A stretch of DNA of 55,163 nucleotides from an uncultured virus (IMG/VR IMGVR_UViG_3300028641_000003) (IMGVR_UViG_3300028641_000003), one strand, 5' to 3'; shown: positions 10,168-31,606, counted from the first letter of the stretch. Program-made: numbers and translations. The notes: a model not told the origin generated them from the letters alone.

Positions 10168-10204
10168 AAAAAAACAAAGGCTACTTTGTAGTAGCCTTTG
10201 TTTT
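10168..10204. terminator. Bidirectional intrinsic terminator
   Basis: AAAACAAAGGCTACT-TTGT-AGTAGCCTTTGTTTT. Confidence 0.75.
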
Positions 10205-10842
10205 CACCAGAGGGATATTCCGTTTTCTTCGAGACACTTTATCCAGACATTCTTTTCTCTGGACTTAAATCCCTTCAAAGCTGCCATGATCTTTTCCTCT
10301 TCGGTGAGGGCGCGAGGCTTGTTGGCAAGCTTGAATCCAAACTTCTCTTCGAATTCACGGAGAGAAAGGTTGTCCTTCGCGCTGTTGCAACGACGGCAGG
10401 CAGCAACAACGTTTTCTATAACGTCATTTCCACCCTTGCTTCGTGGTATAACATGGTCACGAGTTCCGGATCGCATTCCAATCTTGGCACCACAGTATTG
10501 ACAGGTGAAATTGTCCCTTATCAAGACATTTCGAAGCGAAGGAGCGTTTAGGCGGTTAGCCGAGTTCTTCTTCGTCTTTGTCCAGTAGGTTAGGCGCATG
10601 ACGGCAGGAATACGATGTGTCCCACTGAACGAGCGGACATTTTCCGACTCGTCAAACCATGCCAGTACTTCCATCTTTGGAAGTCTCTTCATTTCCTTGG
10701 CATACTGTGGGAGAGAAGCATCGTTTGCAATGCTTTCGGGAATGTAGGTCTTGTTCAAAAGATTTAGAGCCTTGCGCCACTTGCGGACGCAAAGAAACTC
10801 GTTTGATGCGTTAAGTATAAGGCAGCTTGGTATGTGTGCCAT
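10204..10842 (-). CDS. HNH endonuclease (McrA-like)
   Basis: LILNAS, RNVLIRDNFTCQYCG, TRDHVIPRSKGG, NVVAACRRCN..K. Confidence 0.9.
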   Translation of the reverse strand: MAHIPSCLILNASNEFLCVRKWRKALNLLNKTYIPESIANDASLPQYAKEMKRLPKMEVLAWFDESENVRSFSGTHRIPAVMRLTYWTKTKKNSANRLNAPSLRNVLIRDNFTCQYCGAKIGMRSGTRDHVIPRSKGGNDVIENVVAACRRCNSAKDNLSLREFEEKFGFKLANKPRALTEEEKIMAALKGFKSREKNVWIKCLEENGISLW

Positions 10843-14419: not shown

Positions 14420-14794
14420 TGGTGGAGATGTGCGGTGCTGCCCCGCAGTCCAAAATCACTTTCATATTCCGTCTACAAGTTTAGAAGTTTAGACTTAAAC
14501 TCCAAAGATGCTTCTTGTTGATCGTCCTGGCACGGGACTAGGATAATAACGCATATCCGCAACTCACAGTTGTCTTAATCTTGGGTAACTGTCAGTTACA
14601 TTGCCAAGAAGCAACCCCTATGTTACAGAGTTTCCAAGTCGAGATATCCTTGGGACTCTGGCAAGGAGCGATTAAGCTGCCATTGCGTATTCAACTGAGT
14701 CATCAGTTATTTTTTTACATGTTTTTTAAGTGACCACATGTTCCACTACTTGCAAGAGATACTTCCACGATCCTGTCGAATCTGTGTCATCCCC
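14420..14794 (-). ncRNA. ssrA: tmRNA, tag (A)DDSVEYAMAA
   Basis: 5' GGGGATGA...TTCGAC, 3' ...CATCTCCACCA with G3:U70; ATAACT resume context, tag ORF 14704-14672. Confidence 0.92.
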
Positions 14795-14800
14795 ATAAAA

Positions 14801-14878
14801 TGGTGTGCATGAGAGGATTCGAACCTCCAACACTTACGCCCTCAACGTAATACCTCGTGCCAATTGGGTTACACGCAC
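14801..14878 (-). tRNA. tRNA-Leu(GAG), short variable loop
   Basis: TTACG-TTGAGGG-CGTAA, A73, CCA. Confidence 0.85.
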
Positions 14879-15708
14879 ATATTTTTTTCTAGCCAATAAC
14901 CTCTAGGGAATTTTGGAATATCAATCCCTAGTTTTTTGCATCTTTTGCGTATTGCATTATCACTAACACCGAACATTTTAGCTACGCTGGTTAACGGCAT
15001 TTCGTTTATATACTTCGTCAAATCACATGAAGAAACATCAAACTTTTTATTATTTTCACTAATTATAAATTCACCGCATTTTCTATTTTCATTGTAGCAT
15101 TTTGCACAAACTCCTTTACTTTTTTTCGACACCACACACCCGCACATTTTACACTTTTTTTCGAAGCGTAACTTCTGGTCGTTTTCCTTTAATAAATTTT
15201 TTTGTTTAGTATTCTGAAGTTTTCCTTTATTACCCCATGTCAATGTTTGTGAATGACAGTTTGGGCATAGAAATCTAAGGTTGTTTATTCTATTATCATT
15301 ATGAATGCCGTTAATGTGGTCTACTTGCAATGTTATCTTTTCGCCCATCCACGTGTCGCCGTTATTGCATTTTTCGCATTTATATTCTCTTCCATTTTCC
15401 AATAGACGCTTACTAATCATATAACCACTTGCGGGGGTTGAATTTTCGCAGAAAAAATCTTCGTCTGATTTTCTTACTCTTATAGCCTGCATTTTTATTC
15501 TCATATCAGTCAAGGAGGTTTTCCCGCGTGACCAAGCAGACCCAGTAAAATGAGATATATCTATATTGAAGTATCTAATTAAACTCTTTATATGATTATG
15601 ATTTCCACCACTATATGCCAAACCCAGATTTGCTAAAACATTTGATATTGAGGTTGATTTTTTCACAACTTCTTCTAGTATTTCCTTGGTGTACTTTCGA
15701 TGTCTCAT
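14869..15708 (-). CDS. HNH homing endonuclease
   Basis: CEKC...LQVDHING...DNRINNLRFLCPNCHSQT, C-terminal HTH; stop overlaps tRNA-Leu. Confidence 0.9.
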   Translation of the reverse strand: MRHRKYTKEILEEVVKKSTSISNVLANLGLAYSGGNHNHIKSLIRYFNIDISHFTGSAWSRGKTSLTDMRIKMQAIRVRKSDEDFFCENSTPASGYMISKRLLENGREYKCEKCNNGDTWMGEKITLQVDHINGIHNDNRINNLRFLCPNCHSQTLTWGNKGKLQNTKQKNLLKENDQKLRFEKKCKMCGCVVSKKSKGVCAKCYNENRKCGEFIISENNKKFDVSSCDLTKYINEMPLTSVAKMFGVSDNAIRKRCKKLGIDIPKFPRGYWLEKNMCV

Positions 15709-17901: not shown

Positions 17902-18000
17902 TGGTGCGGGCGACAGGATTTGAACCTGCGATTTCTTGCTCCCTGGCAGTTACTATTAGGTAACTAAAGCAAGCGGAATACCAGACTTTCCTACACCCAC
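17902..18000 (-). tRNA. tRNA-Pro(TGG) with 22-nt GCCA-ended insert (17944-17965)
   Basis: Removing AGTTACCTAATAGTAACTGCCA gives CTTGC-TTTGGGA-GCAAG. Confidence 0.8.
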
Positions 18001-18108: not shown

Positions 18109-18819
18109 TTATATTTCAATTCCAAGAATTTTACATCTTTTTCTTATTGCATTATCAGACACCCCGTATTTTACACCTATTTTAGTCATAGGCATTTTGC
18201 TAACATCATCCATTAACTGCTCTTTACTAACTTCAAATTTACGGCGTTTCTTACAAGAACATTTTAGACATTTATTGTTTTTATTTTTTGTTGTTACACA
18301 CCCACATTCGTCACAGTTATGTCTTTTTGCGTGATATTGTTTATTTTTACCAGAAAAAGTAGAAGTTTGAGAGTGGCAGTTTGGGCATAAGAAACATAGA
18401 TTTTCTATTCTGTTATCATTATGTATTCCATTCTTATGTTCTAATTGAAGAGTTATTATCTTACCCAACCATACTCCATTGTTCCCACAGCAACTACACT
18501 CGTATTTTAGTAATCCTTCATTGACCAATCTTTTTTTAAGATAATGTCTAGCGTATGATGAATTCTGGGTTAATACCTGTGATAATGGTTTCTTCTTGGC
18601 GTTAAATTTTCTACCTTTATTGGAACCTACGCCGAGTGCTATATGTGAAATATCTACTTTTTCTTCGATGCATCTATTTTTAATTGTCTTGTAATTTCCT
18701 CCTTTATTTTCCATTCCGACATATTTTAGTATTTCGCTTATAGTGTTAGATGATGCTACTAATCTAGCGAATTCTTCTTTTGGTATTTTCCAAATTATGC
18801 TTCTCTTTTTTCTTGTCAT
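18109..18819 (-). CDS. HNH homing endonuclease (paralog of 14869-15708)
   Basis: LQLEHKNG..NDNRIENLCFLCPNCHSQT; GVSDNAIRKRCK HTH shared with the paralog. Confidence 0.9.
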   Translation of the reverse strand: MTRKKRSIIWKIPKEEFARLVASSNTISEILKYVGMENKGGNYKTIKNRCIEEKVDISHIALGVGSNKGRKFNAKKKPLSQVLTQNSSYARHYLKKRLVNEGLLKYECSCCGNNGVWLGKIITLQLEHKNGIHNDNRIENLCFLCPNCHSQTSTFSGKNKQYHAKRHNCDECGCVTTKNKNNKCLKCSCKKRRKFEVSKEQLMDDVSKMPMTKIGVKYGVSDNAIRKRCKILGIEI

Positions 18820-18952: not shown

Positions 18953-18959
18953 ATGATAG

Positions 18960-19076
18960 TTGGGAGTGAGGGATTCGAACCCCCACAGAGAGATCCTGGC
19001 GACTGTTTATGGACTTGAACCACATTGTTTCCTATAACAATCAAAGTCTCTCGTCCTACCATTAGACGAACCCCCA
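18960..19076 (-). tRNA. tRNA-Gln(TTG) with 46-nt minihelix insert (18997-19042)
   Basis: Removal gives AGAGA-CTTTGGA-TCTCT; no encoded CCA. Confidence 0.8.
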
Positions 19077-19715: not shown

Positions 19716-19786
19716 TGCAGGATAGAGGAATCGAACCTCTGACTCCGGCTTAACTGCCGGTGTGATAACCACTTCACCAATCCCGC
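19716..19786 (-). tRNA. tRNA-like gene with 6-nt anticodon loop (undetermined)
   Basis: Good acceptor, D and T arms; CCGGC-AGTTAA-GCCGG; no CCA. Confidence 0.6.
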
Positions 19787-20218: not shown

Positions 20219-20335
20219 AAAAGACCACACCGTTTCTGCATTGTTAAGAGGCTGGTATGGTGCTACTGAACGACCACTCATGGTTGAGCATCTTAGAGAG
20301 GCTTGAGTGGGGCGGAGCCGTTTCATGCTCCTTAT

Positions 20336-21243: not shown

Positions 21244-21246
21244 ATA

Positions 21247-21280
21247 AATCAAACTACGCTATAGAGTTGTTAAACGAAGC
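21247..21280 (-). promoter_or_regulatory. boxA-like + AGCGTAGTTTG motif preceding tRNA runs (copies at 22698, 29242, 30145, 30638)
   Basis: YTTYACAA-like N7-9 AGCGTAGTTTG repeated five times, each just 5' of a tRNA. Confidence 0.65.
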
Positions 21281-22695: not shown

Positions 22696-22722
22696 ATAAT
22701 CAAACTACGCTTATAATGTTGT

Positions 22723-22759
22723 AAAAAGAAAAACCCCGACTTTTTGAGTCAGGGTTTTC
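22723..22759 (-). terminator. Attenuator terminator of tRNA block 2
   Basis: AAAACCCTGACT-CAAAA-AGTCGGGGTTTT-TCTTTTT. Confidence 0.85.
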
Positions 22760-22787
22760 AGAGGGTGCCTATTTTTAGGTCTTTCTC

Positions 22788-22892
22788 TTACTTACCTGAC
22801 TCCTGAGTAATAAAATCAGAGAGACGGCGACTCGACAACCATGATGGTTGGAGTTGCTGGACTGGCTGATGGGTGGGTAGGAGGTTAATCAT
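22788..22892 (-). CDS. Leader peptide 2 MINLLPTHQPVQQLQPSWLSSRRLSDFITQESGK
   Basis: Lies between late promoter (22906-22913) and terminator; its GAGTCAGG is complementary to the terminator 5' arm. Confidence 0.75.
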   Translation of the reverse strand: MINLLPTHQPVQQLQPSWLSSRRLSDFITQESGK

Positions 22893-22994
22893 AATGTTCT
22901 ATCTTTATTTATATGCGTATTCTAACATGTCCTGAGAAAAATACAATAAGTATTTTTACCATTGCGTAGTTTGTAATGTTTATAAGGACTTACA

Positions 22995-24333: not shown

Positions 24334-24409
24334 TGGTGCTTCCGGTGGGATTTTAACCCACAACCAAGCGGTTTAGAATCGCTTGCTCTTTCATTTGAGC
24401 TACGGAGGC
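24334..24409 (-). tRNA. Amber suppressor tRNA (CTA)
   Basis: AGCG(A)-TTCTAAA-(C)CGCT, intact cloverleaf, ACCA. Confidence 0.8.
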
Positions 24410-25919: not shown

Positions 25920-26031
25920 TGGTGCGCCGGGATGGAATTTAACCACCTTCCCCCTTAACTTACAGGCAACTCGCTACGCGCAGCTTGCTGCTAGTTTTTT
26001 GTAAGGCGCTCTAACGATGAGCTACCAACGC
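25920..26031 (-). ncRNA. tRNA scaffold with ~40-nt anticodon-arm insertion
   Basis: GCGTTGG/CCGGCGC-ACCA, GCTC/GAGC D stem. Confidence 0.55.
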
Positions 26032-26494: not shown

Positions 26495-26614
26495 TGGCTG
26501 GAAAGAAGGGATTCGAACCCCTGACCTAGTGATTATGGTGATGAGCGTAAGAGTTGAACTTACTGATTCCTTTGCCCATTACAGTCACTTGCACTACCGC
26601 TGTGCTACTTTCCA
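26495..26614 (-). tRNA. tRNA-Asn(GTT) with 45-nt minihelix insert (26536-26580)
   Basis: Removal gives AGTGA-CTGTTAA-TCACT; G73. Confidence 0.83.
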
Positions 26615-26620
26615 ATGATT

Positions 26621-26718
26621 TGGCGTTCCCGGTAGGATTTGAACCTACGACCATTGGATTATGGCAGTGATTTGTTAATCACCGAAATCCAAAGCTCTTC
26701 CAACTGAGCTACGAGAAC
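26621..26718 (-). tRNA. tRNA-Arg(TCT) with 22-nt microhelix insert (26662-26683)
   Basis: Removal gives TTGGA-TTTCTAA-TCCAA; A20 present. Confidence 0.83.
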
Positions 26719-27595: not shown

Positions 27596-27669
27596 TGGAA
27601 GCGCAGAAAGGAGTCGCACCTTTATCTATTGGTTATGAGCCAATTATGCTACTGTTACACCACCGCGCA
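27596..27669 (-). tRNA. tRNA-Met(CAT), initiator-like (1:72 mismatch)
   Basis: ATTGG-CTCATAA-CCAAT. Confidence 0.82.
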
Positions 27670-28418
27670 GTGTTAATACGAATTCTACCCTTTACAAATC
27701 CCATTTCTATATATTTGTTTATGTCATTTTTATTTATTCTAAAACATTCACCAGTTTGAAGATTCTTCACCCATATGAGTTGAGAATATATTTTACCATA
27801 TCTCTCTTTCATAGTGTTTGATAAGTTTTCTCTTGTTTCTTTCGATGACATTCTTTCTTTCATTTTTTGTGAAAGTAATGTCTTAGTTTCGTTACTTCCA
27901 CATTCACTCTCTTTTTTGTATCTTTCTTTTACTGATAATGAGATTTTGTTTCTTACCTCATCATTTATATATCTTTTCTTTGCTCTATCTGACATTTTCT
28001 TTCTCGTTTCATCTGATATAATTCTTGTCTTATTAGTATCTATCATTTTTTGTTTTGATTCTTTCGAGTAGGTTTTTGGTTTCTGACTTATTATGGAGAG
28101 CTTTCTTTTTGTCTCATCAGTGTGATTCTTTCCTCTAAACTTTGGTCCACCTTCGCCACCAACTGATATGTTATAAACATCTTTTCTTTTTATAAAATCT
28201 TCATTCACAATAAGTATTTCCATTTTATCCATTTGCTCTTCGTTGTCAAAAACATGGAGTATTTCTTTTGTAAAGTTACTTCTCCCATATTTCTTAACGG
28301 CAGCCTTTATATGATGTCCGGAACCTAAGTAATCATCGTTGATATTTTCGGTTTGGTGCTTCCCAATGTAAATCTTACCGTTTATCTTATTAGTTATCTT
28401 GTATATGGTATAAAACAT
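27633..28418 (-). CDS. GIY-YIG homing endonuclease, SegB-like with NUMOD3 repeats
   Basis: TIYKITNKINGKIYIGKH, YLGSG, YNI..GG, HTDETKRKLS; 3' end overlaps tRNA-Met; start re-called at AGGAG RBS. Confidence 0.9.
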   Translation of the reverse strand: MFYTIYKITNKINGKIYIGKHQTENINDDYLGSGHHIKAAVKKYGRSNFTKEILHVFDNEEQMDKMEILIVNEDFIKRKDVYNISVGGEGGPKFRGKNHTDETKRKLSIISQKPKTYSKESKQKMIDTNKTRIISDETRKKMSDRAKKRYINDEVRNKISLSVKERYKKESECGSNETKTLLSQKMKERMSSKETRENLSNTMKERYGKIYSQLIWVKNLQTGECFRINKNDINKYIEMGFVKGRIRINTARWCNSSIIGS

Positions 28419-28555
28419 AATACTCCTATTATACCAGTATTTATATTTCATAACCAAACGATTTACTGCTTCTCTATCAAAAATGGGAGCCAACCTAACG
28501 CAAGCTAGGGACACTTTTTACGGCTATCACAACTTACATACGACACAGATGAATC

Positions 28556-29239: not shown

Positions 29240-29336
29240 ATAATACAAACTACGCTATACACTTGTGAAGTCGCTGGCATTGCTGCCGTTGATGATACCA
29301 TCATACAGCCCCTTTCAGGAATGCAAGAGGTAATTT

Positions 29337-29929: not shown

Positions 29930-30049
29930 TGGTGGAGTTGATGGGATTCAAACCCATATTTGTCAAATGCCATTTAAGGCGTAAAGATGACTGTCTTTGT
30001 CCTGTTATGTGATGTTGCAACATCCATAAACATTAGACGACTTAACCCC
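29930..30049 (-). ncRNA. Ala-acceptor tRNA-like RNA without a normal anticodon arm
   Basis: GGGGTT/AACTCC-ACCA (G3:U70), T arm ATGGG/CCCAT. Confidence 0.55.
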
Positions 30050-30391: not shown

Positions 30392-30396
30392 ATTAG

Positions 30397-30474
30397 AGCC
30401 TCTGACGGGGATTAGGCACCCCGCTTCCTCCGGTTTACAGTCCGGTGCTTTAAACTAATATAAGCTACAGAAGC
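30397..30474 (-). tRNA. Degenerate tRNA (8-nt loop ACTGTAAA; Tyr/Thr ambiguous)
   Basis: Cloverleaf present, no CCA. Confidence 0.5.
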
Positions 30475-30555: not shown

Positions 30556-30633
30556 TGGTGCGGTAAACAGGACTTGAACCTGCAACATCCACTATGGCAA
30601 AGTGGCGCTCTAATCCAATTGAGCTATTACCGC
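30556..30633 (-). tRNA. tRNA-Gly(GCC)
   Basis: CCACT-TTGCCAT-AGTGG. Confidence 0.88.
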
Positions 30634-30677
30634 ATACTACAAACTACGCTATAGAATTGTGAAAGACATCCGAAACG

Positions 30678-30706
30678 AAAAAAGCCTCTGGTTTGACCAG
30701 AGGCTT
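30678..30706 (-). terminator. Attenuator terminator of tRNA block 1
   Basis: AAGCCTCTGG-TCAAA-CCAGAGGCTT-TTTT. Confidence 0.88.
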
Positions 30707-30734
30707 GTGTATCTCATGAAGAGATAGACAGCCT

Positions 30735-30800
30735 CTAGGAACCCACGCCTTCTGCGTTGGCTCTTTTATATCCTATCTTATTTGTTAAGCAAGTGGTCAT
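30735..30800 (-). CDS. Leader peptide 1 MTTCLTNKIGYKRANAEGVGS
   Basis: TAGGA RBS, late promoter 30844-30851; 21 codons all different; AGAGGCT at the stop pairs with the terminator arm. Confidence 0.78.
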   Translation of the reverse strand: MTTCLTNKIGYKRANAEGVGS

Positions 30801-30835
30801 TGAAGGCGTGTTCCTAAGTGTGTGATACAGGGTTG

Positions 30836-31570
30836 CTATAAAGTATTTATATGGGATATTGTATCACACTTTAAATTTTTTCCTAAACATATTTTAAAGT
30901 AGCTTTCCGATACCTCATAGCCAACATACTCTCTGCCAAGTTTCTCACAGGATTCTGCGACTGTTCCTATGCCCATGAAAGGATCTAGGACAGTATCACC
31001 AGCATCAGTTGATAATTTAATACAGATTTCTGGTAACAATGGATGGAAGGGTGCTGGATGGTCCTTCTGCTTCTTCGGAGGCATGACCCAAACCTCTGAC
31101 CGAAATTCTTTGGGTAGTCTGCTTTTGTATACCTTTGGCTTGCCCTTAGCTAACCAGAATATATATTCAGTGGTTGGAGTCAAAACATCATTCCGTATAT
31201 TAGGAGAGTTTCTTCTGTCAATAATTATAAGCTGATAGAGATTCCACTTTGTCTTGCTCACGATATCGTAGGGGTTGTAGCACTTGTTGCTCTTTCGACG
31301 CATCTTGTGGTTGTAAAACAAAGATCCATCGTCTTTAGTTTTTTCAAATATCTTATCAAGAATCTTTACTTGCCACTCTTGGTATTCACTCTCTGGCATG
31401 TCATCGCCATATACATCATAGTCGATGTTGTGCTTTGACCATATCTGGTTTCCAGTTTTTACCTTCCCCAGCAATCCCTTCTTGTTATAGGGCGGGGAGG
31501 TAATTGTAGTCTGGATGCTATTGTCTGATAGGCTTGAAATACCTTCAAGACAATCCATGTTATAAATCAT
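30836..31570 (-). CDS. DNA methyltransferase (N4-C/N6-A, beta class)
   Basis: TSPPY, HPAPF, VLDPFMGIGT. Confidence 0.9.
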   Translation of the reverse strand: MIYNMDCLEGISSLSDNSIQTTITSPPYNKKGLLGKVKTGNQIWSKHNIDYDVYGDDMPESEYQEWQVKILDKIFEKTKDDGSLFYNHKMRRKSNKCYNPYDIVSKTKWNLYQLIIIDRRNSPNIRNDVLTPTTEYIFWLAKGKPKVYKSRLPKEFRSEVWVMPPKKQKDHPAPFHPLLPEICIKLSTDAGDTVLDPFMGIGTVAESCEKLGREYVGYEVSESYFKICLGKNLKCDTISHINTL

Positions 31571-31606
31571 TAATGTATTCTATGACTTATTTTTTGGAAG
31601 TCAACA

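Follow-up and report, generated by a model that had tools for sequence, protein, structure and literature searches.

A candidate ribosome-sensing attenuator at the head of a phage tRNA gene array

A structured leader unit precedes the tRNA block

We analysed a stretch of 55,163 nucleotides from an uncultured virus (IMG/VR IMGVR_UViG_3300028641_000003), called the window in the following, and found at the head of its tRNA block a short element that may decide whether the tRNA genes are transcribed. This element, unit 1, lies between a DNA methylase gene and the gene for tRNA-Gly(GCC), and all its features are on the minus strand, to which the coordinates below refer unless noted otherwise. It combines a leader open reading frame (ORF) of 21 codons with three RNA helices, one of which is an intrinsic terminator. 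Read from the sequence, unit 1 would be a ribosome-sensing leader-ORF transcription attenuator, a reading that we consider about evenly balanced; that the terminator is conditional in one way or another is likely. As an attenuator it would probably allow the downstream tRNAs to be made when ribosomes decode the leader codons slowly. A first-pass annotation had already interpreted the region as an attenuator. What held of this interpretation is that the architecture is non-random, is kept in the related contig L004, is duplicated in unrelated sequence and comes with a frame-specific codon match; the regulatory role itself keeps the even standing just given. Every sequence feature that the annotation had listed was found on the minus strand, and most of them go beyond chance.

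Three helices compete at the terminator

The intrinsic terminator of unit 1 (30678-30706) has an 11-bp stem (30706-30682) with a loop of 3 nt, followed by six U residues, and folds with -18.1 kcal/mol. It was the top match of a terminator scan over 12 kb. It is located 130 nt past the methylase stop codon and about 45-50 nt ahead of tRNA-Gly. The fold of the whole region had a z-score of -4.76.

The 5' arm of this terminator can instead pair upstream in an antiterminator hairpin of 16 bp (30698-30737) with -21.0 kcal/mol and a z-score of -4.98; none of 200 shuffled sequences and, in a separate run, none of 2000 was as good. The 5' strand of the hairpin starts with the UAG stop codon of the leader ORF, and its 3' strand takes 9 of the 11 nt of the terminator 5' arm. 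The pairing of AGAGGCU (30736-30730) with AGCCUCU (30705-30699) in the terminator arm, which the first-pass annotation had pointed out, was recovered as the lower stem of this larger structure, in which two further pairs and an apical 6-bp stem (30726-30721 with 30715-30710) complete the 16 bp. Its bulges are single bases only.

A third helix, P1, is formed by the 5' arm UUAGGAACACGCCUUC (UUAGGAAC-ACGCCUUC, 30802-30817) and the 3' arm GAAGGCGU-GG-GUUCCUAG (30735-30752), which spans the last six codons of the ORF and its stop. The long helix that had been expected between the ribosome-binding site (RBS) of the leader and the end of the ORF is thus present, with 16 pairs, a GG bulge and -24.7 kcal/mol (z-score -3.57; 1 of 200 shuffles was as good). 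P1 includes a Shine-Dalgarno (SD)-like AGGA and ends one base short of the AUG, and in the window it has the UAG (30737-30735) in common with the antiterminator. We propose that P1 may serve both as an anti-antiterminator and as a mask of the RBS. When the RNA was folded as growing prefixes, the antiterminator belonged to the minimum free energy structure for all prefixes ending at 30700-30685 and was replaced once the terminator 3' arm was complete. With P1 formed, the terminator state was favoured by 8.3 kcal/mol.

To the terminator arm, the upstream sequence of unit 1 offers a pairing gain of -14.7 kcal/mol, which was reached by 1 of 2000 shuffles of that sequence. As an empirical null we used 48 distinct strong terminators (68 before duplicates were removed) from the window and the collected phage loci, leaving out nine loci that duplicate the element. 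The three largest gains among the 48 were those of unit 1 (-14.7), of a second terminator within the tRNA block at 22759-22729 (-10.7) and of the L004 homologue of unit 1 (-10.6). The remaining 45 had gains of -6.9 or weaker, and the two terminators of the window that lie outside the tRNA block had -4.0 and -0.9.

The leader ORF and a second unit of the same design

The leader ORF MTTCLTNKIGYKRANAEGVGS (30735-30800) starts with the ATG at 30800-30798 and stops with the TAG at 30737-30735. Its 21 codons all differ in sequence, as the earlier annotation had stated, and a window of 21 distinct codons occurs in only 24 of the 8092 windows taken from the phage's own genes. The position of the stop codon at the antiterminator arm is kept in L004; translation of the ORF is a prediction.

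The TAG stop had also been connected with a suppressor tRNA of the same block. A suppressor-type tRNA gene with the anticodon CUA does sit there (24334-24409), and the relative G003 has one too. The proposed connection, however, is at chance level, as TAG ends 8 of the 42 ORFs in the window, and it was dropped: TAG is an ordinary stop here. None of the ORFs in the window requires read-through of a TAG.

The second terminator of the tRNA block belongs to a unit of the same design at 22729-22892. Here, an ORF of 34 codons (ORF2; the leader ORF of unit 1 is ORF1) starts with the ATG at 22892 and ends with the TAA at 22790-22788, just after the antiterminator 5' arm GAGUCAGG (22802-22795) that pairs with the 5' arm of the terminator 22759-22729. 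The antiterminator region folds with -19.8 kcal/mol and the terminator with -17.1 kcal/mol; the pairing gain was -14.4, and none of 2000 shuffles was as good. The unit is followed by a short motif, described below, and by tRNA-Ser(GCU). Its sequence is unrelated to that of unit 1.

The leader codons match the tRNAs that follow

The two terminators divide the tRNA block into two segments, and we compared the codons of each leader with the tRNAs behind it. Anticodons were called with default ARAGORN, with relaxed ARAGORN and from Rfam alignments. About 20 tRNA-like genes were excluded, 18 with an ambiguous anticodon (30474, 30141, 30049, 29680, 29065, 26982, 26718, 26031, 22599, 21018, 20048, 19786, 19156, 18000, 17400-16676 and 16438) and 2 that repeat an anticodon (23448 and 20218). 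Segment A, between the two terminators, then holds 15 distinct anticodons: Gly GCC and UCC, Glu CUC and UUC, Asn, Val UAC, Arg UCU and CCU, Leu UAA, Lys, CAU, Ala, Tyr, and Thr CGU and UGU. Segment B, past the second terminator, holds 17: four Ser, Thr GGU, Val GAC, Arg ACG, Ile GAU, Asp, His, Phe, Gln, Pro, Trp, and Leu CAA, UAG and GAG. By standard wobble rules the codon sets of the two segments overlap in TTG alone.

Read in frame and with the ATG excluded, ORF1 has 20 sense codons, 15 of which are decoded by segment A only, 3 by segment B only and 2 by neither; the other two frames gave 8 and 8, and 8 and 9, for A only and B only. ORF2 showed the opposite preference, with 27 of its 33 codons (again without the ATG) decoded by segment B only and 4 by segment A only, compared to 21 and 9 or 19 and 8 in the other frames. 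The minority codons are at positions 2, 3 and 21 of ORF1 and at positions 3, 31, 33 and 34 of ORF2, that is, at the leader ends, and a ribosome stalled there would leave the antiterminator blocked.

Windows within the phage genes were as biased as ORF1 in 156 of 10,607 cases and as biased as ORF2 in 0 of 10,217; over all six frames, the counts were 369 of 110,208 and 13 of 110,130. When the assignment of tRNAs to segments was permuted, the joint score was not reached in 20,000 permutations, and the score of ORF1 alone was reached in 10 of 20,000. This last count rose to 51 when ATA was not credited to a CAU tRNA and to 18 when amino-acid families were moved as a whole. Since the codon test was chosen after the sequences had been seen, the true significance is weaker than these figures, and we take that of ORF1 alone as about 0.01.

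The codons of ORF1 mostly start with a purine and those of ORF2 mostly with a pyrimidine, and between them the two ORFs cover the genetic code in two nearly complementary halves. We tentatively suggest, at somewhat less than even confidence, that the tRNA array consists of two sub-arrays, each gated by its own codon-sampling leader and switched on only if the matching host tRNAs are limiting. Each leader would then measure the speed at which host ribosomes decode the codons of the tRNAs behind it. The host tRNAs could become limiting by a mismatch in codon usage or by host defences that cut tRNAs.

A possible mechanism

The dynamic logic of our proposal is that of the textbook trp attenuator. 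Transcripts would arrive from the ribonucleotide reductase (RNR) and methylase genes or from a possible promoter and would then meet the terminator. The possible promoter is the extended -10-like motif TGATACAAT at 30858-30866, read from the sequence, from which transcription would start near 30851, the upper coordinate given in the first-pass annotation. Its -35 region is weak and it was absent from the listing of the promoter scan, but the motif may be active, in which case the leader unit could own a promoter.

If no ribosome is present, P1 would close, mask the start region and occupy the beginning of the antiterminator arm (a longer part of it in L004), and the terminator would form. The terminator would also form with a ribosome at the UAG, which would cover the antiterminator 5' strand. 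If a ribosome stalls within the final third of the ORF, P1 would be held open and the antiterminator strand would be free to capture the terminator 5' arm, such that RNA polymerase would continue into the tRNA genes. The switch would in this way report slow decoding of the leader codons and answer it by making the matching tRNAs.

Conservation of the unit in related contigs

Records G001 and L086 are identical to the window, and a single other contig, L004 (also recorded as L005, L083-85 and L087), carries the element. The methylase protein of L004 is 89% identical and the element is 93% identical over 211 aligned columns. A methylase search of viral contigs found 1 locus. An RNR search of viral contigs gave 78 loci, among which blastn matched the element only in L005, that is, the L004 contig, and nhmmer found nothing. 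An exact 26-mer and two peptide-degenerate patterns likewise found the L004 contig only, and no relative of the peptide pattern was found outside the lineage. In metagenome contigs, the methylase alignment covered 68 loci, 2 of them close, namely the window's own type and the L004 contig.

The leader peptide of L004 is identical. Its ORF has two substitutions, GTG to GTA and TCC to TCT, which are synonymous and leave each codon to be decoded by the same tRNA species as in the window. In the apical hairpin and the terminator, all stem bases are kept and both loops are changed. The P1 arms contain three substitutions, resulting in two wobble pairs and one A.C mismatch, and a fourth change is in the GG bulge. 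At the P1 flanks, an insertion of CU on the 5' side and of G just past the stop create an outer stem of 11 bp (CUCUUAGGAAC / GUUCUUAGGAG), which enters the antiterminator 5' strand so that about 6 nt are common to both helices. The longer P1 makes P1 and the antiterminator more clearly exclusive in L004. The balance of the two competing hairpins is kept there, with -19.2 kcal/mol for the antiterminator and -18.2 kcal/mol for the terminator.

Contigs of the runs X15 and X16 also have GTG changed to GTA, and in addition A30687 is replaced by G, by which the terminator has U.G in place of a U-A pair. The P1 loop, which is 50 nt long and rich in A, is without substitution in L004, X15 and X16. The methylase gene differs by presence or absence: one contig of X15 joins position 31606, the end of the RNR gene, to 30866 via 17 other letters, and the methylase ORF ends in 10 codons of sequence that is also present in the variant without the gene. 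As the X15 junction is exactly at the TGATACAAT motif, the leader unit is kept as a module whatever gene is upstream.

A short motif adjoins the tRNA genes behind both terminators

Between the terminator of unit 1 and tRNA-Gly lies the motif TTCACAATTCTATAGCGTAGTTTGTAGTAT (30634-30664), which adjoins the 5' end of the tRNA. The motif is about 30 nt long, has the form TT[C/T]ACAA..TATA[A]GCGTAGTTTG..TAT with the core TATAGCGTAGTTTG, and stands behind both unit terminators. Copies are found at 30634-30664, 29240-29270, 21244-21274 and 22696-22729, each directly before a tRNA gene, and a weaker copy at 22960-22973 on the plus strand. The end of the motif reads TATG, in which the G is the first base of the tRNA. 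In the 112 kb of G001, no copy was found outside the tRNA block; exact cores number 3 in G001 and 2 in G002. The motif may be a promoter or a processing signal, judging from its sequence and position. Its TATG end with the tRNA G as a possible start is reminiscent of the promoters of phage RNA polymerases; among the ORFs scanned (10 and 30, a part of the ORFs in the window), none encoded an RNA polymerase.

Weighing the attenuator against other explanations

A number of observations weigh against an attenuator in unit 1, and some of them support other explanations. The comparative data are thin: carriers of the element belong to two lineages only, and there are no true compensatory substitutions between the window and L004. 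The more distant relative G003, whose RNR is 63% identical and which has 42 tRNAs, showed over 33 kb no strongly upstream-paired terminator directly before a tRNA, and at fifteen other RNR loci no tRNA was nearby. The RNA-type library contigs span only 31314-31595 (X17) and 31372-31547 (X23), which is the methylase gene, and none covers the element; the X17 library is labelled 'probably DNA' and has short partial matches elsewhere. The codon bias of ORF2 is partly compositional because this ORF is rich in C.

Energetics add a further difficulty. An equilibrium model with a ribosome footprint of 27 nt gave results that were not robust. The antiterminator of the window was favoured only with the P-site at codons 15-17. 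At these positions the A-site codons are GCA, GAA and GGC, for which segment A encodes the Ala, Glu and Gly tRNAs. In L004 the terminator won at every position, and in the second unit there was essentially no position that favoured the antiterminator. The barrier for direct refolding from antiterminator to terminator is just 3-4 kcal/mol. Given this low barrier and the equilibrium results, any effect of the antiterminator must be kinetic, as it is in the classical attenuators.

That the equilibrium state is the terminator state would suit an ordinary intrinsic terminator, which closes the RNR/methylase unit and is followed by a promoter of the tRNA block itself. The helices would then stabilise the 3' end or be incidental, and the ORF and its codons would be due to chance. 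The position 130 nt past the methylase stop fits this explanation, and so does G003, which is without such a layout. It also fits that the motif behind both terminators contains the sigma-70-like hexamers TTCACA-18-TAGTAT, placed between terminator and tRNA. Should the motif act as a promoter, the tRNAs could be made without read-through, and the attenuator would govern the read-through alone. However, TAGTAT as a sigma-70 -10 element would put the start inside the mature tRNA, assuming the usual spacing of 6-7 nt. The ordinary terminator also leaves aside that the antiterminator pairing is an outlier among the shuffles and among the 48 real terminators, that such pairing recurs at the second terminator of the tRNA block and is not seen at the two outside it, and that the joint codon match was not reached in any of the 20,000 permutations. 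We regard an ordinary terminator as unlikely.

The same three helices could also form a conditional terminator with a sensor other than the ribosome. A protein, a small RNA or a tRNA bound to the P1 loop, or the speed of transcription, would then set the switch and the ORF would be incidental. The structural evidence is identical for this explanation and for the ribosome, and the long P1 loop is unchanged in L004, X15 and X16 while other loops vary. The weak signals for translation point in the same direction. The SD-like AGGA (30815-30812) is 12 nt from the AUG and within P1, which makes for a poor and masked RBS, compared to the AGGA or GGAG with a spacer of 5-8 nt to the ATG that is typical of the phage genes. 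ORF2 is without any SD. Small ORFs are also frequent by chance; five of 21-26 amino acids occur across both strands of the same 200 nt. On the other hand, a sensor of this kind explains neither the codon match that is confined to one frame of ORF1 (15/3 versus 8/8 and 8/9) nor its 21 distinct codons nor, in two units of unrelated sequence, a stop codon placed precisely where the antiterminator arm begins, and no Rfam family, the T-box included, matches the region; within 30600-30900 nothing was above the gathering threshold, and the best weak match was a trpB motif with 21.4 bits at a cut-off of 59 (E 0.87). On balance, a sensor other than the ribosome seems quite improbable.

A stand-alone gene for a small RNA or a small protein, which would span about 175 nt with the possible promoter and the terminator at its two ends and have no control over the tRNA genes, is very improbable: the unit is self-contained with a possible promoter, a structured RNA and a terminator, is kept where the upstream gene is absent and has only synonymous changes in its ORF, but such a gene would have no need of a hairpin in competition with the terminator, and neither relatives of the peptide pattern outside the lineage nor an Rfam match were found.

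Genomic setting and further features of the tRNA block

The source phage is a large uncultured myovirus-like phage, for which ORF scans found baseplate genes, RNR, several DNA methylases and homing endonucleases. Sequencing runs labelled activated sludge metagenome match the stretch at 100%. Directly upstream of unit 1 is the N6/N4 DNA methylase gene (31570-30836; 244 amino acids, stop codon TAG), and the first gene of the array past the terminator is tRNA-Gly(GCC) at 30556-30633. The tRNA block extends from 30633 to 14242 with all genes on the minus strand and contains at least 40 tRNA genes and a transfer-messenger RNA (tmRNA) gene. The tmRNA is full (14420-14794; 108.7 bits). Another gene, tmRNA-like or tRNA-like and very short, was observed at 29930-30049; it has an acceptor end of the alanine type, and its score of 18.1 bits is below the cut-off.

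Other elements are interspersed in the block. An abiF RNA motif matched at 20273-20310 with 41.6 bits (cut-off 37), and four homing-endonuclease genes, three HNH and one GIY-YIG, are located among the tRNA genes (14869-15708, 18109-18819, 10204-10842 and 27633-28514). In Rfam alignments, the anticodon loop of five tRNA genes was interrupted by an insertion of 25-48 nt (26621-26718, 26495-26614, 25920-26031, 18957-19076 and 17902-18000). Several of these insertions hold a small hairpin, in some cases T-arm-like, and their length is too small for group I introns. Two tRNA-like genes, at 30396-30474 and 19716-19786, have odd anticodon loops of 8 nt (ACUGUAAA) and 6 nt (AGUUAA) and were given no amino acid by ARAGORN.

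Relation to known regulators and implications

The leader-peptide attenuators of enterobacteria, trpL, hisL and pheL as well as the multivalent thr and ilv leaders, control amino-acid operons. Unit 1 resembles them in that the end of a short ORF overlaps the first of three exclusive helices (anti-antiterminator, antiterminator and terminator), in the stop codon at the antiterminator arm and in codons that relate to what the downstream genes supply. As in these systems, termination would be expected when the leader is not translated and also when its translation is unimpeded. In contrast, the genes regulated here would be tRNA genes and not biosynthetic enzymes, and the element is carried by a phage. 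Regulatory codons cognate to the product were found in an altered form: no codon is repeated in tandem or otherwise, and 21 different codons would sample many tRNA species at once. A further difference is that the 5' arm of the first helix is upstream of the AUG and masks the RBS.

With T-box riboswitches, unit 1 would share the principle of a terminator/antiterminator switch that reports the status of tRNA. T-boxes, however, bind uncharged tRNA directly via a specifier loop and a conserved T-box bulge and control genes for aminoacyl-tRNA synthetases and amino acids, whereas unit 1 matches no T-box model and has single-base bulges only.

In the accessible part of the literature, which covers attenuators with leader peptides in amino-acid and resistance operons as well as surveys of tRNA arrays, no attenuator before tRNA genes was found, nor any description of tRNA genes whose supply is under feedback control by the speed of decoding. 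Large phages have tRNA genes by the dozen, and to our knowledge little has been established about the mode and timing of their expression. With its length of about 190 nt the element is short, and the contrast between the two units makes reporter tests easy. If the attenuator reading is true, it would extend classical attenuation from the supply of amino acids to the supply of tRNAs and would give a direct and testable link between phage tRNA arrays and the codon usage of the host or its tRNA-targeting defences. The tRNA supply of the phage would then adjust itself to the decoding capacity of its host.

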